Shown here in pieces: positions 5,083 to 35,254 of a stretch of 64,000 bases of DNA. Numbering within the stretch: the first letter of the stretch is position 1; each line of letters begins with the position of its first letter. Source of the stretch: Candidatus Dormibacteria bacterium (GTDB lineage Bacteria; Chloroflexota; Dormibacteria; Aeolococcales; Aeolococcaceae); assembly GCA_050734155.1 (NCBI GenBank), contig JBOHUD010000023.1:15726-79725 (forward strand). Reading direction: 5' to 3'. Both the position numbers and the translations under genes were made by a program. Under the pieces are notes generated by a model. It was given only the letters and a program-made list of their open reading frames with translations, did no database searches and was not told the DNA's origin.

Positions 5083-6321
5083 CTAGGCGTGGGAGACCAC
5101 GGAGTCGGCGATCGCCTTGAAGTCGCCGTCGTCGAGCAGGGCCTTGCGTTCCAGGGAGCGCAGCTTGACCAGCTGCAGGATCTCGAGGCTCTCCTCCTGG
5201 GAGGCGGTCACCCCGATGCGCTCCAGGCCCTCGACGATGTTGTCGATGCCACTGCCCTTGCCGAGCACGATGCGCGGCCCCGTCTGCCCGACCAGCTCGG
5301 GAAGGTAGGGCAGCGACTCGGTGCGGTCCACGTCACGCACGTTGCGCGCCCAGGTGGCGATGATGCCGGACTCGATCTCGAAGGTGCGGCTGCCGGTGAC
5401 CGCCCGGTTGGATGGCTGCTGCACGCCGGAGAGGTCACCCACCAGGCGCGCCAGCCCGGTGAGCGCCTCGGTGCGGATGCCGAGGTCCTTGCCGTACAGG
5501 GTGAGCAGGGTCAGCACCGTCTCCTCCAGCGGGGTGTTGCCGGCGCGCTCGCCGAGGCCGCTGACGGTTACCTGGACGCAGGAGGCGCCGGCCGCCGCGG
5601 CGATAACCGTGTTGGCCACGCCCATCCCGTAGTCCATGTGGAAGTGTGTCTCCAGGGGGACGTTCAAGCGCTCGCGGCTGACCTTGACGAATCGCTCCAC
5701 CGCATGCGGGGTCAGCACGCCGAAGGTGTCGACGAGCCCCAGCGAGTCGACATGACCGTCGCGTGCCACCGTCTCCACCAGGTTGAGATAGTCCTGCACC
5801 GACGCACGGGTGGCGTCGATCGGGAAGAAGGAGACGAGCAGACCGTTGTCGTGCGCGAACTTGGTCGCCTGGATGGACAGCTCGACCGCCCTCTCCACGC
5901 TCCAGCGATAGCCGAGCTCGATGAGGTGCCGGCTCGAGGGGATCTCCATGACGACACCCTGGGCGCCGCAGTCGATCGCCACCTGGACGTCCGCCACCAT
6001 GCAGCGCGAGAAGGCGTAGATGGTCGAGGGCAGGTCGGCGGCGACGATCCGCGAGACGGCCTCGGCGTCGGCGGCGGAGACGGCGGGAAGGCCCGCCTCG
6101 ATGCGGTGGACTCCGGCTTCCGAGAGCGCCTCGGCGATGCGCACCTTGTCGTCGGCTGTGAACTCGACCCCCGCCTGCTGCTCACCATCGCGAAGGGTCA
6201 CGTCATGGACGGTGATCCTCTCCGGGAAGGCGAAGGCCGCGGCGACCTCGGGATCGTGGTTCCACGGGCTCGTGAACCACTGCTCGGTGTGCCAGGGCTC
6301 ATTGGGGCGGACCGACGACAT
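5083..6321 (-). CDS. HMGL-like (pyruvate carboxyltransferase) family enzyme; 2-isopropylmalate / homocitrate / citramalate synthase-like
   Basis: Signature VTLRDGEQ near the N-terminus and a TIM-barrel DRE-TIM fold. The ORF-track 5' extension to 6507 was rejected. Start was set at ATG 6321 (MSSVRPNEPW), checked directly in the sequence. Confidence 0.7.
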   Translation of the reverse strand: MSSVRPNEPWHTEQWFTSPWNHDPEVAAAFAFPERITVHDVTLRDGEQQAGVEFTADDKVRIAEALSEAGVHRIEAGLPAVSAADAEAVSRIVAADLPSTIYAFSRCMVADVQVAIDCGAQGVVMEIPSSRHLIELGYRWSVERAVELSIQATKFAHDNGLLVSFFPIDATRASVQDYLNLVETVARDGHVDSLGLVDTFGVLTPHAVERFVKVSRERLNVPLETHFHMDYGMGVANTVIAAAAGASCVQVTVSGLGERAGNTPLEETVLTLLTLYGKDLGIRTEALTGLARLVGDLSGVQQPSNRAVTGSRTFEIESGIIATWARNVRDVDRTESLPYLPELVGQTGPRIVLGKGSGIDNIVEGLERIGVTASQEESLEILQLVKLRSLERKALLDDGDFKAIADSVVSHA

Positions 6322-6458
6322 GGCTGACCTCCTTGGCGCGAATTCTGCCCGGTCGGTGCCGCCTGCTCGGGCCCCGCGGCTGACCGTCCTGGGCCCACGG
6401 GTATTGCAGGATACATCGTGCACACTGCCGCCAACCACCCCTCTCTGGCCCCAGGTCC

Positions 6459-7256
6459 TCAGGAGCGGCGGATGGCGGGTGGCACCGGGGCTGGTGCGGG
6501 CGCGCACCTCGACGGTCTGGTCGGAGGGCCCGAAGAGCCCGCTGCGGGCGGCGGTTTCCTCGATCCGAACCTTGAGCTGTTCGGCGCGGAGACCTCCGGC
6601 CGTGGTCGGGCTCGGACGCGCGGCCCTGGAGTCGAACCAAATTCAAACAGGCTCAACCGCCCTGCAGGGGAAGCCACGAGGAAGCACGTCTCCTTGGCAC
6701 GGCCCCGCGAGTAATCGCAGGGTTGCGAATCGCTGGCCGAGGTACCCGGGATGGTCGTCACCCGTCCGACCGCTCCAGCGGCCAGCTGGACTAGGGCCAC
6801 CGGCCCGTTCACCGTCGCGTCTGCGACGACCACAGCACCGCCTGGCGTGGCGCTCACACCATGCCGATTCTGGACGTGATGCGTCTCCACCGCTGCAGCG
6901 GTGGACGGCGCGGCGGCGTCGGCCACCCAGACGACGCCGGAGTCCGCGGCGATTGCCACCGCAGGGCGAGAGCCCAGATCGACTTGCAGAGAGATGTGCC
7001 AGCGCTGCTGACCAACAGCCGTTGGCGAACCGGTCGCCGCCGTCGATGGCGGTGTCGGAGAGCTTGCCGAGCACGACGACGCAAAGAGGCAGATGGCCGC
7101 AGCCAATGGCGTCCGAATGATGCGCGTCGGGTGCAGTGCGGCGCCCCTCCGCTGATGCCCAGCAGCACCCAGGGTTAGGGCGCTGCCTCGGAAAATCCGT
7201 CTGAAACGAAATTGAAGTACACCGTGGCGGAGGTCGCCGACGTGAGTTGCAACCAA
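6459..7256 (-). pseudogene. Degraded paralog of the lipoprotein 30850-31953 (lipobox FASSC present; internally shorter; diverged C-terminus; no canonical start near the signal peptide)
   Basis: Central region ETHHVQNRHGVSATPGGAVVVADATVNGPVALVQLAAGAVGRVTTIPGTSASDSQPCDYSR aligns to TYHVQNPRTLIATPSGAIVVADATQNGPVMVEELAAGSAAPVATIPGTAASESRECHYSR of the 30850 gene. Only a TTG at 7256 is in frame upstream of the lipobox. The ORF overlaps the upstream gene by 81 nt. Confidence 0.35.
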
Positions 7257-7789
7257 TCACCGTTGATGTGCGCGATCGTGAGTGCGCCCGAAGTGCTGGG
7301 GTCGGTGAAGATCCCGACAGGAATGAAGTCCACGCCGCAACCGTCCGACCCCACCTGTTCGGTGTACACGTCCACTGCAGGGACCCCCGATGCCGGCGAC
7401 GTCACGCCGGTTGTGCCCGACCAGATCGCATAGGTCGCGCCCCTGGGCAGCGCCGAGCCCATCCAGCTGCTGTCCGCGTAGAAGTTTGCCGCAGATCCAA
7501 AGGGACCACCCTGCCCGCCGTCGTGAATCCGCGTGTCGGGATACGGCAGCGTGACAGCAGGAACGCATGGCGTTGCCGCCGGGATCACCACGCTGGACTC
7601 AGGCGGCTTGGTGGCACGGGGAGCGGCCTGCGCTTCAGCGATCTGTTGTTGCTCGCGGGCGACGAACTGTTGCTTTGGTGTCGACGGCGGGGTCGTTGCG
7701 ACATCTGCCACGGCCAGAACGACACCGATCGCAAGGGCGAAGAGGACGGCCACCGTTGCCGCCACGCGAATTCCAACCCTTCTGGTCAT
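7175..7789 (-). CDS. Membrane-anchored (N-terminal signal-anchor) secreted hypothetical protein; paralog of 30230-30853
   Basis: About 65% identity to the 30230-30853 product (MTRRVGIRVAATVAV... versus MTRKFGIRLAAATVAV...; shared GGQGGPFGSA and SDGCGV motifs). GC is lower than in neighbouring genes. Start set at the internal ATG at 7789, matching the paralog's N-terminus. Confidence 0.6.
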   Translation of the reverse strand: MTRRVGIRVAATVAVLFALAIGVVLAVADVATTPPSTPKQQFVAREQQQIAEAQAAPRATKPPESSVVIPAATPCVPAVTLPYPDTRIHDGGQGGPFGSAANFYADSSWMGSALPRGATYAIWSGTTGVTSPASGVPAVDVYTEQVGSDGCGVDFIPVGIFTDPSTSGALTIAHINGDWLQLTSATSATVYFNFVSDGFSEAAP

Positions 7790-7925
7790 CGATGAGTCCC
7801 ACAGGAATGGGTCATGGCATGGCCTCACCACCCAGTGGGCTGATGCTCGACCATCGTGGACTTGACGCTAGCCCATGATCGGTCACGAGTCAATCTAAAT
7901 TGGATCGGACGCCGCCGGCGCTCCC

Positions 7926-26475: not shown

Positions 26476-26614
26476 CAGGGATCAGTCGCGAGGGTAGCGT
26501 CTCGGCCTCCGCCAGGCGTCATCCCTGCGGACGACATCGGTGTCATCCCTGTCCATTTCCCGCCGAGCCGTTCGTCGTCGGGTCATGATCAACCCTCTTT
26601 TGGAGGCTGTCGTG

Positions 26615-26956
26615 ATGGAGTACATGGTCTTGCTGTCCCGCGGGGAATGGGAGGACAACGCGCCCGAGGATGAGCGCAACCGGACGTACCAGGAGATTCA
26701 ACAGTGGTGGGGCCGGCTCGCCGCTGAGGGCAAGATCGTCGGGGGTCACCAGCTGCAGCACCCCGACACCGCCACCACCGTGGTGCTGCGCGGCGGTAAG
26801 TCGACCGTCGTCGACGGGCCCTTCATGGAGGCGAAGGAGGTGATCGGGGGTTACGGCATCTTCGATGTTGCCGACCTCGACGAGGCGATCGCGCTGGTCC
26901 GCACCTTCCCGTCGCCGAGCGGCGCCGTGGAGATCCGCCCTGTCGTCGTCCGCTGA
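26615..26956 (+). CDS. YciI-like / DGPF-domain protein
   Basis: MEYMVLLSRGEWEDN... resembles the YciI family (MKYMLLIYG). Commonly found adjacent to ECF41-type sigma factor genes. Confidence 0.55.
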   Translation: MEYMVLLSRGEWEDNAPEDERNRTYQEIQQWWGRLAAEGKIVGGHQLQHPDTATTVVLRGGKSTVVDGPFMEAKEVIGGYGIFDVADLDEAIALVRTFPSPSGAVEIRPVVVR

Positions 26957-28163
26957 CGATCCGGCGCCCTCGCAGGGCCCGATCGAACGCGTCTTCCGGG
27001 AAGAGGCGGGCCGGCTCACCGCGAGCCTGGTCCGCCTCACCGGCGACTTCGACCTCTCCGAGGAGCTGGTCGCCGACGCGCTCGTCGAGGCGTTGGAGCA
27101 CTGGCCGAGCCAGGGGGTCCCCGATCGACCCGGTGCCTGGTTGCTGACCACCGCGCGCCGCAAGGGCCTCGATCGACTCCGTCGCCAGACCCGGTACCGC
27201 GAGCTGCTCCGGAGGATGGCGGCGATCCCCGATCCACCCCGCCGCGAGGCCGACGATCGGTTGCGGCTGATCTTCACCTGCTGCCATCCCGCGCTGCCGC
27301 GTGACGCGCAGGTCGCGCTCACCCTCCGAGCCGTGGTGGGGCTGACCACCGCCGAGATCGCGCGCGCGTTCCTGGTCGCCGAGCCGACCATGGCCAGGAG
27401 GATCACGCGGGCGAAGCGGAAGATCGCCGGCGCCGGGATCCCCTATCGCGTCCCTGCCCCAGCCGAGCTCCGCGGCCGCCTCGACGAGGTGCTCGCCGTC
27501 CTCTATCTCGTCTTCAACGAGGGGTACCTGGCCAGCGGCGGCGATGATCCGATTCGGCAGGACCTTGCTCGTGACGCGGAGTGGCTTGCCGGCCTGCTGG
27601 TGCGCCTGCTGCCCGACGAGCCGGAGCCGTTGGGACTCCTCGCGCTGATCCGCCTCCACCTCGCCCGCTGGCCGGCGCGCCTGGATGCGGACGGTGAGCT
27701 GGTGCTTCTCGCCGACCAGGATCGCGCGGTCTGGGATGGCCGCGAAATTGCCGATGGGGTGCGGCTGATTGGCCGCGCCGCAGCCGCGGGAAGGCCGGGG
27801 CCATACCAGGTGCAGGCGGCGATCGCCGCCGTCCATTGCGAGGCACCGACGTGGGAGGCAACCGACTGGACTCGGCTGGTCAGCCTCTACACGCTGCTCG
27901 CAACCCTCGAGCCAACGCCGGTGGTGCGGCTGAACCGCGCCATCGCGGTCTCCCATGTTCGGGGAGCGGCGGCGGCGCTCGCCGAGGTGGATGCCCTGGG
28001 CGACGACCTCGACTCCTACCACCTCTTCCACGCGACGCGCGCGGCGCTGCTGCGCGAGCTTGGCCGCGACGATGACGCCGGTGACGCCGATCGCCGCGCG
28101 GTGACGCTCACCGCGAATGTGGCTGAGCAGAGGCTTCTCAGCAATCGCCTGGCCGGAGCCTGA
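26865..28163 (+). CDS. ECF sigma factor with long C-terminal extension (ECF41/SigJ-like)
   Basis: Region 2 (ERVFREEAGRLTASLVRLTGDFDLSEELVADALVEALEHW), region 4 (GLTTAEIARAFLVAEPTMARRITRAKRKI), about 230 aa C-terminal extension. The only in-frame ATG/GTG/TTG is at 26865, inside the YciI-like gene, giving a 92-nt overlap; the start is uncertain. Confidence 0.6.
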   Translation: MLPTSTRRSRWSAPSRRRAAPWRSALSSSADDPAPSQGPIERVFREEAGRLTASLVRLTGDFDLSEELVADALVEALEHWPSQGVPDRPGAWLLTTARRKGLDRLRRQTRYRELLRRMAAIPDPPRREADDRLRLIFTCCHPALPRDAQVALTLRAVVGLTTAEIARAFLVAEPTMARRITRAKRKIAGAGIPYRVPAPAELRGRLDEVLAVLYLVFNEGYLASGGDDPIRQDLARDAEWLAGLLVRLLPDEPEPLGLLALIRLHLARWPARLDADGELVLLADQDRAVWDGREIADGVRLIGRAAAAGRPGPYQVQAAIAAVHCEAPTWEATDWTRLVSLYTLLATLEPTPVVRLNRAIAVSHVRGAAAALAEVDALGDDLDSYHLFHATRAALLRELGRDDDAGDADRRAVTLTANVAEQRLLSNRLAGA

Positions 28164-28305
28164 GCGGGATACCGCCGTCGCCTGCCACGGCACGCCCGCC
28201 GGAGGCGGTGACCGCAACGCCGGGATGTTGCAGCGGTCTACCCTTCGCGATGGTGGCTGCGGGCAGCCATCGAGGCTTCGACCACCGCGACCAGGAGGGC
28301 GCCCC

Positions 28306-28734
28306 ATGGCATGGCAGCGGCAGTGGCACAAGCACCCGGGAGTGCGATCCGGTGACCAGCTCTCGGTGGGCGAACGTGCCGCCGACCGAATGCGCAACGG
28401 CATGGGCTCGTGGCCGTTCGTGTTCGCCTTCTTCGGGGTCATGATCCTGTGGGCGGTCATCAACGGGGTCCTCCACGTCGGCGGCGGATCGGGCTTCGAC
28501 CCCTACCCCTTCATCCTTCTCAACCTGTTTCTCTCGATGTTGGCGGGCGTCCAGGCAGCCGCCCTCCTGATCGCGGCCAAACGATCCGACGGCATCTCCT
28601 CAGAGATCGCCGTGCACACGGAGACGAACACCGAGTTCATCAAGACGCTGTTGCAGCAGAACACGGAGCTGACGCAGGCGGTCGAGGCACTGACCAAGGA
28701 GGTGCACCAGCGGGTCTGCGCCGCCAGCCCGTAG
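28306..28734 (+). CDS. DUF1003-family membrane protein
   Basis: Two TM helices (WPFVFAFFGVMILWAVINGV; FILLNLFLSMLAGVQAAALLIA) followed by a coiled-coil C-terminus, typical of DUF1003. Confidence 0.5.
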   Translation: MAWQRQWHKHPGVRSGDQLSVGERAADRMRNGMGSWPFVFAFFGVMILWAVINGVLHVGGGSGFDPYPFILLNLFLSMLAGVQAAALLIAAKRSDGISSEIAVHTETNTEFIKTLLQQNTELTQAVEALTKEVHQRVCAASP

Positions 28735-28739
28735 GCCGA

Positions 28740-29110
28740 GCCACTGGCGAGTTCGTCGGATTGGACGTGCACAAGGCCGTCTTCGCGGTGGCAATCGCCG
28801 ACCATGGTGCGCTGTAGACGTCTGGTTAGCAGAGACCGACGACGACCAACGTCGTGGCCGGCTCGGCGTGGTGCTTCAGTACGTCGTCGCCAACCGCGAC
28901 GGCATCGCCAGCTACGGCCGCCGCCACGCCCAGGCCTCGAGCCCCACCGAGAAGGTCATGGATGTGGTCATCGGTCGTCGCTTCAACTCAAGGCCCAAGG
29001 CACCTCCTGCCATCGTCCCGGTGCCGGCCGCGTCCACCAGCTCCGCGTCCTCAAGGAGAACAAGATTGGACCGCTACTGGGCCGCTCGCGCACCCCCAAT
29101 CATCGCCGCG
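28740..29110 (+). mobile_element. Degraded IS110-family (DEDD) transposase remnant (multiple frameshifts/deletions)
   Basis: Frame 1 gives ...GEFVGLDVHKAVFAVAIADHGAL-stop, the IS110 N-terminal motif. Downstream frames give fragments such as IASYGRRHAQASS..GRRFS (cf. ASYAGLAPxxxQSG...GRxxISK) and an ARKLL-like tail. It borders a lower-GC block. Confidence 0.45.
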
Positions 29111-29303
29111 CTGGCCGCCTGGCGCCGAAACATTGGATGCATCCGCCCGGCTCCCAATTCGATTGACTCGAAACGGGCCCAGTGCTACCCTCCAGTCCAC
29201 GATGGCTTCGGGCCGTCAGCGTTTGGGTCGTCCGGGGAGGTCGTCCCGTGCCACCCGGCAACTCGTGCGCCGGGCGCGGCTTTGCTAGTTACTTGCAGGT
29301 CCC

Positions 29304-30230
29304 TTGATCTTTGCCGCCGAGGGTGCTCAGATCGCTCACGCCACCCAATCCCTGCCGCGAACCGTCGGCGCTTGGTCGTGGTACATCACCCACGGAAATG
29401 ACTCGACTGGCGTGGCCTACCAACTCGGCTGCAACGAGGGGCACGCGAGGGCGGGTGACCTAGGCAACAGCGAAATCATCCTAGATTTCGGTTCGCAGGT
29501 GCCAAACCAAAGCGAGACGCGGCTGCCGTTCCACGATGGCTTCGCCAGCTACTCGCTTGTCGAGAGCATGTCAGAGCAGTTTGCCCGTGGCTATTTCGAG
29601 TGCACCGGGAGCGACACTACGACCGTGCTCAAGCTTGCAGTGGGCACTACCAACGACAACGTCGACGGGGAGTACAACAGCACAACAACCGCTTACAATG
29701 GCGGATATGCGTGGTCTCAGGTAGCTCTGATTGTGAGAAATTGGGTCGCCTCGAGCCATTACACCGCTCAGGTTGACGTCGGTGCCGCCAGCGATATGGA
29801 GACTGAATTCGGTGGTCAGTCCGCCACATTGGCCTTCACGAATGGTTACTCTTCAAACAGCGGCGCTCCGTTCTACCTTGACTTCGGTGATGCTGGCGGG
29901 TGTCCCATCAATTCCTACACCGGTGGGAATGGCTACGGCTGCAACAGCGGCTGGAATCAGTACGGAGTGTGGTACAAGAGTTGGGGTCCCGCTCCGGCGT
30001 TTCCGCTCCCGGAGATCTACAATCAGCCACTGGCAAACCAGTGGTGGACCATCTCGCGCTACGGCTACTACGAGCGTAATGCCGCGCTTCACTTTGAGGG
30101 TCCTCTAGACGACTACGATCGTGACCACAGCACCTTCACGCCGACACAAGCATGGAATGCCTTGTCCAATGAGATTGGGTCCGATTCCCACACAAACTAT
30201 TCAATGACGTATTCCTGTGAGATCCACTGA
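29304..30230 (+). CDS. Hypothetical protein rich in G/N/Y/S/T/W, encoded in low-GC DNA; no signal peptide; TTG start
   Basis: GC visibly lower than flanks. The ORF starts at TTG straight after an in-frame TAG. TGATG-coupled to the downstream gene. No recognisable domain; composition resembles a secreted carbohydrate-binding or hydrolase-like domain. Confidence 0.45.
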   Translation: MIFAAEGAQIAHATQSLPRTVGAWSWYITHGNDSTGVAYQLGCNEGHARAGDLGNSEIILDFGSQVPNQSETRLPFHDGFASYSLVESMSEQFARGYFECTGSDTTTVLKLAVGTTNDNVDGEYNSTTTAYNGGYAWSQVALIVRNWVASSHYTAQVDVGAASDMETEFGGQSATLAFTNGYSSNSGAPFYLDFGDAGGCPINSYTGGNGYGCNSGWNQYGVWYKSWGPAPAFPLPEIYNQPLANQWWTISRYGYYERNAALHFEGPLDDYDRDHSTFTPTQAWNALSNEIGSDSHTNYSMTYSCEIH

Positions 30231-30853
30231 TGACCCGGAAGTTTGGAATTCGCTTGGCAGCAGCCACTGTCGCTGTGGCCGCCGCCACGATCGGCGTCGT
30301 CCTGGGCGTGGCAGACGCGCCGAATGGTCCGGCATTGTCGCCGAAGCAGCAGTTTGTTGCCCGGGAGCGGCAGCAGATCGCTGATGCCCAAGCGGCCCCC
30401 CGGGCCTCGAAGCCGCCCGAGACGAGCGTTGTCATCCCCCCTCCGACGCCGTGCGTCCCACCCATCACCCTGCCATTCCCGGACCGCCTGATTCACGTCG
30501 GAGGCCAGGGCGGCCCATTCGGGTCCGCTTCGAACTTCTACGCCGTCAGCAGCTGGGTGGGCTCGGTGTCGTCTACCGGCCCGACGTATGCGATCTGGTC
30601 TGGACTCAGCGGCATAACATCGAGCACGCCGGGGCTCTCTGCGGTGGACGTGTACATTGAGCAGCTCGCCTCGGATGGTTGCGGGGTGAACTTCATTCCG
30701 GTTGGAGTCTTCACCGATTCAGGCACGCGTGGCTTGCTGACGATCACGCGCATCGATGGCGAGTGGTTGCAGCTGACCTCGTCAGCGTCCACCTCGGTGT
30801 ATTTCAACTTGGTCCGCGACGTGTTCTCGATCGGCGTGCCCACTCCTGGATGA
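30230..30853 (+). CDS. Membrane-anchored secreted hypothetical protein; paralog of 7175-7789
   Basis: N-terminal signal anchor followed by a Pro/Ala-rich linker. About 65% identity with the 7175-7789 product. Start overlaps the upstream stop (TGATG); its stop overlaps the downstream ATG (ATGA). Confidence 0.65.
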   Translation: MTRKFGIRLAAATVAVAAATIGVVLGVADAPNGPALSPKQQFVARERQQIADAQAAPRASKPPETSVVIPPPTPCVPPITLPFPDRLIHVGGQGGPFGSASNFYAVSSWVGSVSSTGPTYAIWSGLSGITSSTPGLSAVDVYIEQLASDGCGVNFIPVGVFTDSGTRGLLTITRIDGEWLQLTSSASTSVYFNLVRDVFSIGVPTPG

Positions 30854-31953
30854 GTCGCGGTGTTGACCAGGGTGCTGCACGGCCGCGCTCGCGCATCCCC
30901 CAGACGCTCCTCGTGGCGGGCATGTGCGTCATCGCGTCGGCGTGCTCGGCCGCTCCTCCAGCATCGCCATCGGTGAGCGTAACCCCCTCGCCTGCTTCTG
31001 ATGCCGAGCAGTGGCACGTCACTGAACAGATCAGCCTGGGGCCGGTTGTCGCCACGGCCCTCGCCGAATCCCGGGGGGGGGTGTGGGTGACGATCGCCGC
31101 CGACCCAGAATCAGCATCCGGCAAGGGTGAGGCCCGACGGTATGACGAGACGACAGGTCGAGAGTTGGGCTCGTGGTCGATCGGCGGCGACCCAGCCAGC
31201 CTGAGCGTTGCTCCTGGGACTGTATGGGTCGCGAATGGCCCCGGGGACGGGAGATCATTGATTGCCGACGCGAACACTGTCGTCCAATTGGACTCGTTCA
31301 CAGGCGCTGTGGAGCGTACCTACCATGTGCAGAACCCGCGTACCTTGATCGCAACTCCCAGCGGTGCCATCGTCGTTGCTGACGCAACTCAGAACGGCCC
31401 GGTGATGGTCGAGGAACTGGCGGCCGGATCGGCGGCTCCGGTGGCGACCATCCCAGGCACGGCCGCCAGCGAATCGCGAGAGTGTCACTACTCGCGACCG
31501 GATGCGCCGGGCACCTGTTTGCTCGTGAGTACGGAGGCAGGAGGATTGGTCCTGTATGTGAGCGAGTCGGCTGGCGCGCGACCAGTCGGAAAGATCCCGG
31601 CGACTGGCAATGCTCGCCTCGCATGCGGGCCGGCCTCCTGCTATGTGGCGGTTGACAATGCAAACGACGGCGGAGTCTTTCGCGTAGCCGCCCCCGGAAG
31701 CCCAATTGCGGGGCCGTGGGGGGGGCGGTTCCCAAATAGCATTTGCGCGATGTCAGATCAGGTGTGGACGCTGACCAACCAACAGGGAGCGACCCAACCC
31801 GCCTTCCTGCAGGCGTTCGATGGCGCGACTGGTCGGCTTCGAACTCCTGCGGTCAGCCTCCCCCCTGGCGACGCCCACCTCCTGACGGCCTCCGCCTCCG
31901 GCGCGCTGTGGGTGATCGTAGGACAATCGCTGGTCAAGGTCACCCACGTCTGA
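30850..31953 (+). CDS. Lipoprotein (lipobox IASAC), beta-propeller-like repeats; paralog of the degraded 6459-7256 gene
   Basis: Signal peptide plus lipobox LLVAGMCVIASAC-S. Repeated V-x-V-A-x-G-P / WV-x-V strands. ATGA-coupled to the upstream gene. Confidence 0.65.
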   Translation: MSRGVDQGAARPRSRIPQTLLVAGMCVIASACSAAPPASPSVSVTPSPASDAEQWHVTEQISLGPVVATALAESRGGVWVTIAADPESASGKGEARRYDETTGRELGSWSIGGDPASLSVAPGTVWVANGPGDGRSLIADANTVVQLDSFTGAVERTYHVQNPRTLIATPSGAIVVADATQNGPVMVEELAAGSAAPVATIPGTAASESRECHYSRPDAPGTCLLVSTEAGGLVLYVSESAGARPVGKIPATGNARLACGPASCYVAVDNANDGGVFRVAAPGSPIAGPWGGRFPNSICAMSDQVWTLTNQQGATQPAFLQAFDGATGRLRTPAVSLPPGDAHLLTASASGALWVIVGQSLVKVTHV

Positions 31954-32204
31954 CCACAGGTCGCGCGGCGTCTCCGGAACTCAGGGCACTCGACACCACC
32001 ATCCGGGTGCCCTCGGTCTCACTTCGCCAGGCACGGCCGCCGGTACACGCGGCGGTGCGGCCGTGCTATGAAATCCGGGTGAGCCAGGCCGTCGGCGCTC
32101 CACCACCCGGCGACCAACGCCACCCGGCGAGCGCGCCACCAGAGGTTGCCGGTGGCGCACCGGCCGCTCCAGCGCCGGCTGCGGTCCCGGCCACGCGCAC
32201 CAGC

Positions 32205-32450
32205 ATGGTGTGGTGGACTCTCGGTTTCAGCCTGCTGCTCCTCATCGTGGTCCTGGTCTTCGTTCTTCAGAACCTCTCGCCGGTGAGCACCAGCCTGTTC
32301 AGCGTCAAGTGGACGATCCCGCTCGGGCTCGACCTTCTGCTGGCCACTCTGCTCGGCGCCGTGATCGCGTTCCTGCTCGGCACCGTCCGCATGGTCCAGC
32401 TGCGCCGGGTGGCCCGGCGCCATTCGCGCACTCAGACGCCGCACCCCTAA
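32205..32450 (+). CDS. Small membrane protein, LapA/DUF1049-like (81 aa)
   Basis: MVWWTLGFSLLLLIVVLVFVLQN ... second helix LLLATLLGAVIAFLLG ... basic tail. Short; assignment tentative. Confidence 0.4.
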   Translation: MVWWTLGFSLLLLIVVLVFVLQNLSPVSTSLFSVKWTIPLGLDLLLATLLGAVIAFLLGTVRMVQLRRVARRHSRTQTPHP

Positions 32451-32543
32451 GGGAGCGGCCGCCGACCGCTTTGGCGGATCGCGCCGGAGCTCGCTGCGGG
32501 AACCACCACACTGTGACCGGTGTAGCGGGTTTGACATCGACCC

Positions 32544-33107
32544 GTGGAGGGCCGCCCACTGGACGAAGCAGAGCTCATCGTTCGCGCCGCCGGCGGCGAC
32601 GAGGAGGCGTACGCACAATTGGTCATGCGTCACTCAGACCTCGCCTTCCGCACCGCGTTCCTGCTGACGGGCTCGGCTGCGGAGGCTGAAGAGGCAGCCC
32701 AGGACGGCTTCCTGGCCGCGCACAGCGCCCTGCCACGGTTTCGCGCGCCGGCCCCGTTTCGGCCCTGGCTCCTGCGGATCGTCGCCAACGCCGCGCGCAA
32801 CCGCCGCCGCGCCTCGGTCCGCCGTACCCGCGTCGAGCTCAGGTTGGCGGACACCTTGGAAAGGGGCGGTGCGGCCCCATCGCCCGAAGCCGAGGTGGAG
32901 GCTGCGGAGGAGCGCGCGGCGCTCCTCCGTGCCGTCGCGTCGCTGAACCACGCCGATCGCCAGGTGGTCTGGTGCCGTTACTTCCTGGAGCTCGATGTCG
33001 CCGAGACCGCCGCCGTGCTGAGCTGCGCCGCCGGAACCGTGAAGTCGCGGCTCTCCCGTGCGCTCGGACGCCTGCGCGAGCGCATGGGCGGCGGGGCCGG
33101 CCAGTGA
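32544..33107 (+). CDS. ECF (sigma-70 family group IV) sigma factor
   Basis: Region 2 (YAQLVMRHSDLAFRTAFLLTG..EAEEAAQDGFLAAH) and region 4 (ADRQVVWCRYFLELDVAETAAVLSCAAGTVKSRLSRA). GTG start. Confidence 0.8.
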   Translation: MEGRPLDEAELIVRAAGGDEEAYAQLVMRHSDLAFRTAFLLTGSAAEAEEAAQDGFLAAHSALPRFRAPAPFRPWLLRIVANAARNRRRASVRRTRVELRLADTLERGGAAPSPEAEVEAAEERAALLRAVASLNHADRQVVWCRYFLELDVAETAAVLSCAAGTVKSRLSRALGRLRERMGGGAGQ

Positions 33108-33877
33108 TGAACGACCAGCTCGAGCAGCAGCTCACCGACCTCGGCCGGCACATCGCCTTTCCCGCCACCCCGGAGCTTGCCGCGCCGGTGCGGCAGCGAT
33201 TGGGACATCCGGTGCGGCGGCCGATCATCACGCGGTGGCGCGCGGTCCTCGCCGCCGTGCTGGTGGCTCTCGCCGTCGGGTTCGGCGTTCCGCCGGTGCG
33301 CACGGCGGTCGCCCACTGGCTCGGGATCCAGGGCGTCGTGATCACGCCGGTCCCCTCGCTGCCGGCTGTGCATCCCTCGACCCCGCCGTCCTCGTCCGCG
33401 CTCGGCGCCGGCCTCGATCTGGGGCGGCCGACCACGATCGCCCACGCCCGTGACACGGTCGGCTTCACGCCGCTGGTGCCGAGCGGCCTCGGGGTTCCGG
33501 ATGCCGTCTACACGCGCAGCGACATCGGTCCTGTGGTGTCGCTGGTGTACGCGCCTCGAGACGGCCTCCCCCAGTCGGGTCGGACGGGGGTCGGGCTGCT
33601 CATCACCGAGTTTCGCGGCAGCCTCAACCCGGAGTTCACGCAGAAGTTCGTCGGGCCGGGCACCACGGTGGTGCCTGTGACCGTCACGGGGCAAGCCGGG
33701 TACTGGATCGGCGGCGCGCACGACATCGACTACCAGCTCCCCGACGGCACCTCTGCGGCGGACACGCTGCGGCTGGCCGCCCCCACCCTGGTCTTCGAGC
33801 GCGGCGACCTTACTCTCCGCATCGAGGGCGCACGCACCGAAGCGCACGCGCTCGCGCTGGCAGCGACCCTCAGCTGA
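33107..33877 (+). CDS. Putative anti-sigma factor / membrane-anchored protein cotranscribed with the ECF sigma
   Basis: ATG overlaps the sigma stop (TGATG). Short cytoplasmic N-terminus, a single TM helix (AVLAAVLVALAVGFGV), then an extracytoplasmic domain. Confidence 0.5.
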   Translation: MNDQLEQQLTDLGRHIAFPATPELAAPVRQRLGHPVRRPIITRWRAVLAAVLVALAVGFGVPPVRTAVAHWLGIQGVVITPVPSLPAVHPSTPPSSSALGAGLDLGRPTTIAHARDTVGFTPLVPSGLGVPDAVYTRSDIGPVVSLVYAPRDGLPQSGRTGVGLLITEFRGSLNPEFTQKFVGPGTTVVPVTVTGQAGYWIGGAHDIDYQLPDGTSAADTLRLAAPTLVFERGDLTLRIEGARTEAHALALAATLS

Positions 33878-33931
33878 GCAGCGGGAACCGGCCTCGGGCG
33901 CGCGGTGTAGCACATACGGAGGGTCGATCGG

Positions 33932-35254
33932 GTGAAGAAGCTGCGCCGCCATCTGCTCCTGTTGCTCACCGCAGCGCTGGTCGCCTGCGGTGGTCCGGCG
34001 GTGTCGATCGCAGCCCACCGCTCCACGCCCACCCCCGGCGCCGCGACCGCGGCCATCGCCCCGGCTCATCTGCTGGTGCGGCAGGGCCAGCCTCCCGCTC
34101 GCTCGATACAGCTGCTGGACACCGGCTCGGGGAGGGTGCGGGCGTCGTATCCGGACGGCGTTGCCACCGGTGATTGGTCACGCCTCTTCGTGGTCACCGC
34201 CGCCGGGTCTCACAACCGACTCGAGGAGATCGATCTCAGCACCGGTCACACCATCTCGACCACGGCCACCGAGCCCGGCTTCGCGCTGCCCCGGACCGGG
34301 CCCGCCGGCAAGCCCGCCGGCCTCTCGCCCAACGGCAGCCACCTGGTGCTCGCCGGCGTGGCCACCGCCCAGGATCCACCGGCGACCAACCGCTTTCTCG
34401 TCTACGACACAGGACATCTCGATCGGGGGGCTGTGCATGTGACCCTGAGCGGGTCGTTCCTCTTCGACGGCATCAACAACGACGGCACCGGCCTGTACCT
34501 GCTCGAGGATCTCAGCTCGCCCACCAGGGGCGGCGAATACCACGTGCGTCGGTATGACCTGACGGCGGGGGCGCTGGACCCCGCGAGCATCGTGGACAAG
34601 AGCTCTGGCGAGCAATCGATCACCGGAAGCGCGATCGACAGCGTCACCTCACGCGACGGAGCCTGGCAGTACACCGTGTATGCCTTCGGGGGCAAGCCCC
34701 CGTTCGTGCACGCTCTCAATCTCGACCATGCCACCGCATTCTGCGTGGATCTGCCCGCTGCGCCCCTCGACGAGGGGCTCGACCTGCTCTGGAGTGTGGT
34801 CGCGAGCCACAGCGGTCGCTTCATCTACGCGGTGAACGCAGGCAACGGAGCCGTGGTCGAGATGGCCGCCGACAGCCCGTGGCAGGTCCGGCAGGCGCTG
34901 CTCCCAGTACCAACGCCGACGAGCGCAGCGGCGTGGATTCCGTGGGCTCCCCTGACCGTGGAGGCCAAGCGCCTCGTGGAGGGCGCCGCGGTGATCAGCC
35001 CCGACGATCGCACCCTGTACAGCATCGGGGACACGGCCATCTACCGGGTCGACACTGCGCGTCTGCAGCTGGAGGGGTCACTGCTTGCCGGCCAGGCTCT
35101 CAACTCGCTGGCCATCAGCCCGGACGGTCGGCGCCTCTACGCGACCAGCGTCGACTCTCCGACACCGCTGCTGCAGGTGGACGTGCAGAGCGGACGATGG
35201 GCGTCGATCGGCGGTCCGCGCGGGCCGGTGAGCGTCCTTCGCGCCTTGAGCTGA
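33932..35254 (+). CDS. Lipoprotein with beta-propeller (lactonase-like) repeats
   Basis: Signal peptide plus lipobox LLTAALVACGG. Repeated LY-x-x-x-x-x-G-x-V motifs (FIYAVNAGNGAVVEM, LYATSVDSPTPLLQVDV). Confidence 0.6.
   Translation: MKKLRRHLLLLLTAALVACGGPAVSIAAHRSTPTPGAATAAIAPAHLLVRQGQPPARSIQLLDTGSGRVRASYPDGVATGDWSRLFVVTAAGSHNRLEEIDLSTGHTISTTATEPGFALPRTGPAGKPAGLSPNGSHLVLAGVATAQDPPATNRFLVYDTGHLDRGAVHVTLSGSFLFDGINNDGTGLYLLEDLSSPTRGGEYHVRRYDLTAGALDPASIVDKSSGEQSITGSAIDSVTSRDGAWQYTVYAFGGKPPFVHALNLDHATAFCVDLPAAPLDEGLDLLWSVVASHSGRFIYAVNAGNGAVVEMAADSPWQVRQALLPVPTPTSAAAWIPWAPLTVEAKRLVEGAAVISPDDRTLYSIGDTAIYRVDTARLQLEGSLLAGQALNSLAISPDGRRLYATSVDSPTPLLQVDVQSGRWASIGGPRGPVSVLRALS

Follow-up and report, generated by a model that had tools for sequence, protein, structure and literature searches.

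This report concerns a block of three genes, here called g1, g2 and g3, at positions 29304 to 31953 of the 64,000-nucleotide stretch of Candidatus Dormibacteria bacterium contig JBOHUD010000023.1 that was analysed (hereafter the window, to which coordinates refer unless a locus is named). We find that the block is a real, previously undescribed envelope module that recurs as a unit in other genomes, and that its conserved core is the g1-g2 pair, with g3 as an accessory. The functional reading that we prefer, and to which we give about an even chance of being correct, is a conserved extracytoplasmic module composed of an enzyme (g1), its dedicated partner (g2) and an optional third member (g3). 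In detail, g1 would be a Sec-exported enzyme of an undescribed family with a (β/α)8 triosephosphate isomerase (TIM) barrel, most likely a glycan hydrolase that acts on peptidoglycan or another cell wall polymer through the residues D164-x-E166; g2 would be its membrane-tethered dedicated partner, which at the outer face of the membrane localises g1, presents substrate to it or restrains it; and g3 would be a YncE-like propeller lipoprotein that serves as an optional third subunit or scaffold. Such a cell wall glycan hydrolase is made probable by the combination of export signals on all three products, the linkage and fusion of g1 with g2, the predicted TIM barrel with its acidic pair, and the recruitment of a g1-like domain by an amidase. 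The gene structure, the export signals, the conservation and linkage, the gene fusions and the predicted folds are what the analysis shows; the catalytic activity of g1, its substrate, a physical interaction between g1 and g2, and the direction of the effect of g2 are inferred.

Layout and composition of the three-gene block

The genes of the block are as follows:

29304..30230, forward strand: g1, 308 amino acids from a TTG start as annotated; the full mature domain of a secreted, predicted TIM-barrel protein
30230..30853, forward strand: g2, 207 amino acids; N-terminal membrane anchor, helix, proline-rich linker and eight-strand β domain
30850..31953, forward strand: g3, 367 amino acids from the ATG at 30850; lipobox ..IASAC and a YncE/YVTN-like, predicted β-propeller

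Direct reading of the junctions shows that the g1 stop codon (30228-30230) overlaps the g2 ATG (30230-30232) in the sequence ...cacTGATGacc..., and that the g3 ATG (30850-30852) overlaps the g2 stop codon (30851-30853) in ...ggATGAgt.... These overlapping stop and start codons indicate that g1, g2 and g3 are co-translated from one transcript, and so bear out an earlier note on this DNA, made from the sequence alone, which described three translationally coupled genes. That note had also proposed an envelope system, and export signals were indeed found on all three products (g1 has a signal peptide, although an interrupted one, g2 is anchored by an N-terminal hydrophobic segment, and g3 has a lipobox). 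Its further statement that neither g2 nor g3 has a recognisable domain, and that the system is thus a candidate undescribed one, agrees with our searches of Pfam, NCBIfam, PADLOC and PHROGs with all three proteins, which gave at most sub-threshold chance matches, and of the literature, in which no description of the g1, g2 or g3 families was found. The module recurs across phyla (below). No RNA element was detected by Rfam in 28000-32600.

The block is poor in G+C (guanine plus cytosine), as the earlier note had observed relative to the flanks. The G+C fraction is 0.573 in g1, 0.646 in g2 and 0.660 in g3, against 0.703 for the window, and g1 is the lowest 927-nucleotide stretch within the 64 kb (0.572; mean 0.703, standard deviation 0.031, so about 4 standard deviations below). 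The fraction at third codon positions (GC3) is also low (0.69, 0.77 and 0.71 in g1, g2 and g3, respectively, and 0.82-0.87 in the flanking genes), so the dip is not purely a matter of amino acid composition. Since low GC3 is found both in this block and at the related locus L002, and since three Dormibacteria genomes each have the module in a different, unrelated setting, its horizontal acquisition or mobility is plausible, in keeping with the earlier suggestion that it is a candidate horizontally acquired system.

Conservation and linkage of g1 and g2

Word-index searches returned 47 relatives of g1, 3 of g2 and none of g3, and a g1 profile scan of the GTDB species genomes gave 43 species-level loci (cited by L numbers), whose neighbouring genes were compared by jackhmmer over all open reading frames (ORFs) of each locus. 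A g2 homologue adjoins g1 in 35 of the 43 loci, to which inspection by eye adds L046; the two genes lie on the same strand in 34 of the 35 (and on opposite strands in L022), mostly about 0-140 nucleotides apart or overlapping. The 43 loci come from the Dormibacterota, the Chloroflexota (Ktedonobacteria, including the cultured Dictyobacter kobayashii, Limnocylindrales and Dehalococcoidia), the Actinomycetota (Actinoallomurus, Promicromonospora, Terrabacter, Myceligenerans, Acidimicrobiales and others), the Eremiobacterota (Baltobacteraceae) and the Bacillota (metagenome-assembled genomes, or MAGs, only). At L038, L040 and L041, in Promicromonospora and Myceligenerans, g1 and g2 form a single ORF, and RefSeq contains such fusions as single proteins of 562-567 amino acids from several Promicromonospora species, under the name "peptidase inhibitor family I36 protein", which is taken from a small N-terminal domain. 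The three fused ORFs (L038 4443-6227, L041 4539-6236 and L040 3513-6194) encode secreted proteins without a membrane anchor, in which the g1 barrel and the g2 domain are joined to an Inhibitor_I36-like domain; in Terrabacter (L039) an I36+g1 protein and a membrane-anchored g2 are encoded by separate genes.

The third gene is much less regular in its occurrence. It directly follows g2 at L002/L006, L014, L033, L036, L043 and L044 (six or seven loci), and a fragment of it is present at L007; at L014 g2 and g3 share 4 nucleotides, as they do in the window. All-against-all clustering of the neighbouring ORFs found no other conserved neighbour. The earlier note had regarded g2 and g3 as the conserved functional pair, and here it must be corrected: g1 and g2, adjacent in 35 of 43 loci and fused in three, are the core. 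At L047, on a metagenome contig, the gene that comes next after g1 and g2 (6012-7478) encodes a 488-amino acid Vgb_lyase-type β-propeller with no detectable similarity to g3, so a different propeller may fill the third position there.

With a g2 profile, HMMER run in full over 1.84 billion representatives found 111 clusters at E≤1e-3. Among the genomic contexts reached from g2, L047 has g1, while L050, L003 and L048 have no adjacent g1 (the other contigs are too short to inform). Thus g1 is nearly always accompanied by g2, and g2 occurs also alone; the linkage is asymmetric.

Some genomes carry two copies of the module (L012/L013, L014/L025, L031 and L040). In D. kobayashii several short g1-like ORF fragments lie between an intact g1 and g2 (L009 6151-7108), an arrangement that suggests either partial duplication in tandem or a second g1 in decay; proteins of 257, 119, 105 and 88 amino acids are listed by RefSeq in the same 90% cluster. 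The near-identical ECF (extracytoplasmic function)-sigma/g1/g2 loci L004 and L005 are on two contigs of one Dormibacteraeota MAG (CAVZPR010000002.1 and CAVZPR010000001.1; 1,423,087 and 1,422,614 bp, respectively); their g2 proteins are one residue apart, and they could reflect a pair of haplotypes, or duplication in the assembly, and not paralogues.

The g1 protein

The AlphaFold2 (AF2) model of g1, built with 47 sequences, is a (β/α)8 TIM barrel with a pLDDT (predicted local distance difference test) of 93.4 and a pTM (predicted template modelling score) of 0.90. Residues D164, E166, G195, A197, G199, C200, C213, W217, P236, I238 and W247 are invariant in the family, and D164-x-E166 is placed by the model at the end of barrel strand 157-164. 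There is no invariant His in the family, so metal-His chemistries are unlikely. The homologues bear signal peptides or lipoboxes, and some of them carry Inhibitor_I36, dockerin (at the Pfam cut-off) or fn3 (below the cut-off) modules, which are typical of secreted enzymes and so support such a role for g1. The earlier note had listed g1 as a hypothetical protein; g1 is not incidental to the module but its probable catalytic component.

The link to the cell wall comes from the Bacillus cereus group. Protein QDF27384.1 (540 amino acids, CP041076.1), found by tblastn against plasmids, has an Amidase_3 (N-acetylmuramoyl-L-alanine amidase) domain at residues 5-177 (E 1e-49), and its C-terminal approximately 290 residues form a g1 domain (29% identity to g1, E 8e-23), in which all of the invariant residues, including D-x-E, are kept. 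This protein belongs to a 90% cluster whose 19 members come from B. cereus, B. thuringiensis, B. toyonensis and B. wiedmannii, and Amidase_3 is the only catalytic domain that we found fused to g1. On Bacillus tropicus plasmid p3 (CP041076.1) the Amidase_3 + g1-like gene (L053 4266-5888) lies between IS5 transposases, and nearby are another amidase gene (SH3_3+Amidase_3) and a gene for iota-toxin Ib. No signal peptide is obvious in the product of the Amidase_3 + g1-like gene, and the annotation shows no g2 beside that gene. The g1 domain is not shown in the plasmid amidases of the VipR paper.

The g2 and g3 proteins

Both g2 and g3 are full length relative to their homologues. The g2 model (AF2, 70 sequences; pLDDT 87) has a low-confidence hydrophobic N-terminal segment, a confident and conserved helix (38-55), a proline-rich linker and then eight strands (about 103-200), and its β domain as predicted resembles two blades of a β-propeller. 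A loop with the sequence GI-x4-QGPF is conserved in g2. The N-terminal uncharged hydrophobic run of g2 homologues has a median length of 22 residues and is replaced in some members by a lipobox, so membrane tethering is the conserved feature. The g2 domain is also found in other arrangements: it is C-terminal in P0058 (534 amino acids), whose unrelated N-terminal region has no Pfam hit, and N-terminal in a 423-amino acid protein (L042 5777-7048) whose long C-terminal extension likewise has none.

The g3 lipobox (..LLVAGMCVIASAC, followed by S), recognised by inspection of the sequence, has its counterparts in the LSGC, LTGC, LAAC and MVGC sequences of homologues, and Cys32 of g3 is invariant in the family alignment A7. 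Searched against the PDB, the A7 profile matches 1l0q (YVTN; E 9e-5) and the YncE-family entries 8ptf and 8ptd (1.1e-4) over about 45-90 residues, or about two blades; the match to TolB has an E of 0.02, and that to BamB is weak. Pfam gave no useful match with g3 and six of its homologues, and none at any threshold with the g3 of the window. The earlier note had described g3 as a lipoprotein with β-propeller-like repeats; the invariant lipobox Cys agrees with the first of these, and the partial-length YVTN/YncE profile matches are compatible with the second.

An interrupted g1 signal peptide and a second, degraded copy

The annotated 308-amino acid g1 has no signal peptide, although its homologues have one at the N-terminus. 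The missing part is found just upstream:

29202..29288, forward strand: 5' part of g1, with an ATG, an arginine-rich n-region and the start of a hydrophobic core, ended by the in-frame TAG at 29286-29288

From the ATG at 29202 this frame reads MASGRQRLGRPGRSSRATRQLVRRARLC, the TAG, and then LLAGPLIFAAEGAQIAHA followed by TQSLP, that is, an arginine-rich n-region, a hydrophobic core with the TAG inside it and an A-x-A cleavage site, and in tblastn the N-termini of homologues align across the TAG without interruption. The earlier note was therefore right that g1 as annotated lacks a signal peptide and begins with TTG after an in-frame stop codon; its suggestion of a 5' truncation does not hold, as the complete signal peptide is present and split by the TAG. 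The lesion, as the window reads, is thus a nonsense codon within the signal peptide and not a 5' deletion, and a single T to A change from TTG would explain it. Downstream of the TAG all of the family-invariant residues of g1 are retained, so the lesion is recent or an error. The g1 protein is 100% identical to one from a Candidatus Dormibacteria MAG, and the same TAG is present in a second public record of identical sequence, which is possibly not an independent assembly. Public annotation masks the TAG at 29286-29288 by starting the gene at TTG 29304; the codon may be a genuine nonsense allele or may have arisen in assembly.

A second copy of the module (copy 1, the block above being copy 2) lies on the reverse strand of the window:

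about 6459-7831, reverse strand: copy 1 as a whole (tblastn, ORF list)
7175..7789, reverse strand: intact g2 paralogue, 204 amino acids, 66% identical to g2 (tblastn, ORF list)
7786..7821, reverse strand: g1 remnant, the last approximately 9 codons, overlapping the g2 start as ATGA (DNA alignment and translations)
6645..7172, reverse strand: g3 remnant, with lipobox and about three blades (tblastn, pairwise alignment, blastn)

By blastn, 30204-30972 of copy 2 matches 7815-7044 of copy 1 at 70% identity, and 31346-31496 matches 6856-6706. The g1 remnant ends in AMTHSCGTHR before its stop codon, where g1 has SMTYSCEIH, and beyond this there is no similarity; the g3 remnant has an internal deletion of about 62 amino acids and has lost its C-terminal approximately 130 amino acids. 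The presence of a g1 tail, g2 and g3 remnants in copy 1 indicates that its ancestor was a g1-g2-g3 triad. The two g2 genes differ with a ratio of nonsynonymous to synonymous substitution rates (dN/dS) of about 0.19, as expected under purifying selection, with dS near saturation. The earlier claim that the partners are kept together in both copies thus stands for g2, which is intact in each, and fails for the rest, since the g3 of copy 1 is only a remnant and its g1 has been deleted. Judging from their sequences, both copies of the module in this genome look partly broken and appear to be decaying, with both g2 genes intact.

Comparison with known systems and alternative explanations

The kind of system proposed here is not categorically new, being a secreted enzyme with a dedicated partner; g1 and g2 themselves are covered by no curated family, and in RefSeq they are hypothetical or named after unrelated flanking domains. 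The GH18 enzymes (chitinases, hevamine) have, like the g1 model, a (β/α)8 TIM barrel, but of the GH18 strand-4 motif DxxDxDxE g1 has only D164-x-E166, with Ala and Val at positions -4 and -7 from E166 (..VDVGAASDME..), and no sequence or profile similarity between the two was found by Pfam (no Glyco_hydro_18 match at E≤1 with the 47 g1 homologues), PDB profile search or hhalign. Identity of g1 as a GH18 enzyme was tried and rejected, as hhalign gave 0.15% probability against hevamine 1hvq. The GH25 lysozymes offer an analogy in their D-x-E barrel, but g1 matched none of the GH25 or DUF1906-type Pfam models. The modular Amidase_3 hydrolases (Bacillus autolysins and endolysins) are similar in that the g1 domain lies C-terminal of Amidase_3 in the B. 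cereus group, and different in that g1 is mostly a stand-alone protein with a signal peptide and g2, and that its domain was found in no phage endolysin. On the partner side, g2 resembles proteinaceous inhibitors of lysozyme (MliC/PliC, Ivy) and the TipC-type immunity proteins at the surface of Firmicutes in being a small, predicted all-β, tethered ectodomain that is encoded beside a putative wall hydrolase and is commonly orphaned; unlike the MliC barrel and the Ivy fold, g2 is propeller-blade-like in its model, and in some species it is fused to g1. The g3 profile matches the seven-bladed YncE/YVTN propellers at E of about 1e-4 and TolB and BamB weakly, and g3 is lipid-anchored like BamB; it departs from the YncE/YVTN proteins in that the g3 of the window has no Pfam hit and in that the matches span about two blades. 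Polymorphic toxins differ from g1 homologues, on which we found no delivery or trafficking domain, the extra domains being I36, fn3, dockerin or Amidase_3.

Several observations weigh against g1 as a cell wall hydrolase and g2 as its attachment. No Pfam or PDB profile matched g1, Pfam gave nothing useful for the barrel in its 47 homologues, and both sequence and profile searches of the PDB with g1 were empty. No phage lysin like g1 was found in BFVD (Foldseek, no hit at E≤0.001), in phage genomes (tblastn) or in an IMG/VR scan, and the idea of g1 as a phage lysin was rejected on this account. The g1-like domain could bind the wall instead of cutting it, since in the Bacillus fusion it occupies the usual position of an endolysin wall-binding domain. 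Finally, g2 occurs as an orphan in copy 1 and at L003, L048 and L050, where a pure g1 anchor should not persist alone. As to what g2 does, the natural g1-g2 fusions and the way in which the g2 domain behaves as a module (P0058, L042) favour a targeting or adaptor role, whereas the dependence of g1 on g2 but not of g2 on g1, the frequency of orphan g2 and the two losses of g1 in this genome, where both g2 genes are kept under purifying selection, favour an inhibitor or immunity role.

The latter role leads to an alternative in which the module is an effector-immunity or enzyme-inhibitor pair; g1 would be bacteriolytic against competitors, g2 would block it at the surface of the producer, and orphan g2 proteins would guard against the g1 of neighbours. 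Monoderm bacteria are known to have immunity proteins that are tethered to the membrane at the cell surface (e.g., TipC against TelC). We regard this as possible but rather doubtful. It would account for the asymmetric linkage (35 of 43 g1 loci with g2; g2 alone in copy 1, L003, L048 and L050), for g1 being lost or broken in both copies here while both g2 genes are intact with a dN/dS of about 0.19, for the common presence of two copies per genome (L012/L013, L014/L025, L031, L040) and for the low GC3 and varied genomic contexts, and the Amidase_3 fusion ties g1 to peptidoglycan hydrolysis; an immunity gene directly downstream, with orphans elsewhere, is compatible with it without being specific. 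On the other hand, a permanent g1-g2 fusion in one secreted polypeptide, as in Promicromonospora and Myceligenerans, would be strange if g1 were a toxin and g2 its antidote, g1 homologues have only Sec signals or lipoboxes and no LXG, WXG or Rhs-type delivery domain, there was no PADLOC hit and there are no secretion or toxin genes nearby, and the divergence of g2 is not above that expected of a small partner protein. A broader proposal along these lines, which we consider unlikely, is that g1 represents a new cell wall glycoside hydrolase family (D-x-E) and g2 its inhibitor or immunity protein with a two-blade, propeller-like fold not seen before, together a Sec-dependent effector-immunity or autolysin control system across the Terrabacteria (Dormibacterota, Chloroflexota, Actinomycetota and Bacillota), for which g3-type lipoproteins would be optional adaptors.

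Two other explanations seem to us less probable again. If g1 were an exo-enzyme that degrades environmental or biofilm polysaccharide for nutrition or in exopolysaccharide turnover, with g2 a carbohydrate-binding module in trans or in cis, the modules on some g1 homologues (dockerin, which is at the Pfam cut-off, and fn3, which is below it) would be natural, as would the mobile-module-like distribution of the g2 domain, fused after g1, fused to unrelated regions (P0058, L042) or alone; but no conserved polysaccharide synthesis, sugar transport or utilisation genes lie nearby, no catalytic domain but a peptidoglycan amidase is fused to g1, and a membrane-tethered g2 is ill-suited to be a freely diffusing binding module, all of which makes this explanation distinctly improbable. 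We give slightly less credence still to the idea that the block is a non-functional relic, decaying foreign DNA whose operon structure is historical, which would in any case apply to this genome only and not to the family. The TAG in the g1 signal peptide, the heavy deletion of copy 1, the atypical GC3 and the possible transposase debris upstream are as it would predict; against it, apart from the single TAG (which may come from misassembly or have arisen very recently by mutation) every family-invariant g1 residue is kept, g2 and g3 have their full lengths, and g2 and its paralogue are under purifying selection. We continue to prefer an exported enzyme with a dedicated tethered partner.

Flanking genes and regulation

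The upstream border of the block is marked by the following feature, which is outside the module:

28752..28810, forward strand: possible IS110 transposase N-terminal remnant (..FVGLDVHKAVFAVAIAD..)

This scrap has 19 N-terminal residues that match NCBIfam NF033542 (E 0.037; 13 bits, where the cut-off is 140), and from it to the g1 start there are about 400 nucleotides (28811-29200) of non-coding appearance and intermediate G+C content that had no match in Pfam, NCBIfam, plasmid blastn or plasmid tblastn; one frame of it may loosely resemble the C-terminus of an ISKra4-type transposase. The IS110 remnant that the earlier note reported is possible on the strength of a weak match of 19 residues, to which the sequence that follows adds nothing. 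Farther upstream are a YCII gene, a sigma factor gene with DUF6596 and a DUF1003 gene, and then about 450 nucleotides that match nothing except the IS110-like scrap. The YCII-domain gene is directly followed by the gene for the 432-amino acid sigma factor, in which DUF6596 is C-terminal (26540-28163), and this is a second sigma factor gene within 5 kb of the block.

Downstream of the block lie a LapA-domain gene, an ECF sigma factor gene (32544-33107; Sigma70_r2/r4) and two ORFs without assignment. The cluster of ECF sigma factor, 257-amino acid ORF and 440-amino acid putative propeller-like lipoprotein (32544-35254) possibly forms an envelope cluster of its own, also uncharacterised and separate from the module. 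It had been described as an ECF sigma/anti-sigma/lipoprotein cluster; the sigma domains are present, and the two ORFs that follow have no Pfam hit. The proposal that this sigma factor regulates the block, for which a promoter scan had been suggested and was run, found no favour. Beyond the window an ECF sigma factor gene is near g1 at only three of the related loci, L001/L005, L004 and L015, where L004 and L005 are the near-identical contigs of one MAG, so the linkage is not conserved, and the motif GAAC-N15-19-CGT is absent upstream of g1 and of g2 and has chance frequency overall, although the true motif of the sigma factor in the window may differ.

Significance

For this genome alone the finding is a modest one, as both copies of the module have the appearance of being partly inactivated. 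If our reading is correct, its interest lies in the families: it would define two protein families without a Pfam or NCBIfam model, a TIM-barrel enzyme domain and a membrane-tethered partner, as a gene pair that spans at least five phyla, with cultured actinomycetes and Ktedonobacteria among its carriers and, in the form of a domain fusion, the B. cereus group. The pair would then be a candidate for a new class of cell wall hydrolase with its own control or immunity protein, and would be of relevance to the envelope biology of poorly known soil phyla, the Dormibacterota among them, as well as to classification in CAZy and to efforts to find new lytic enzymes.

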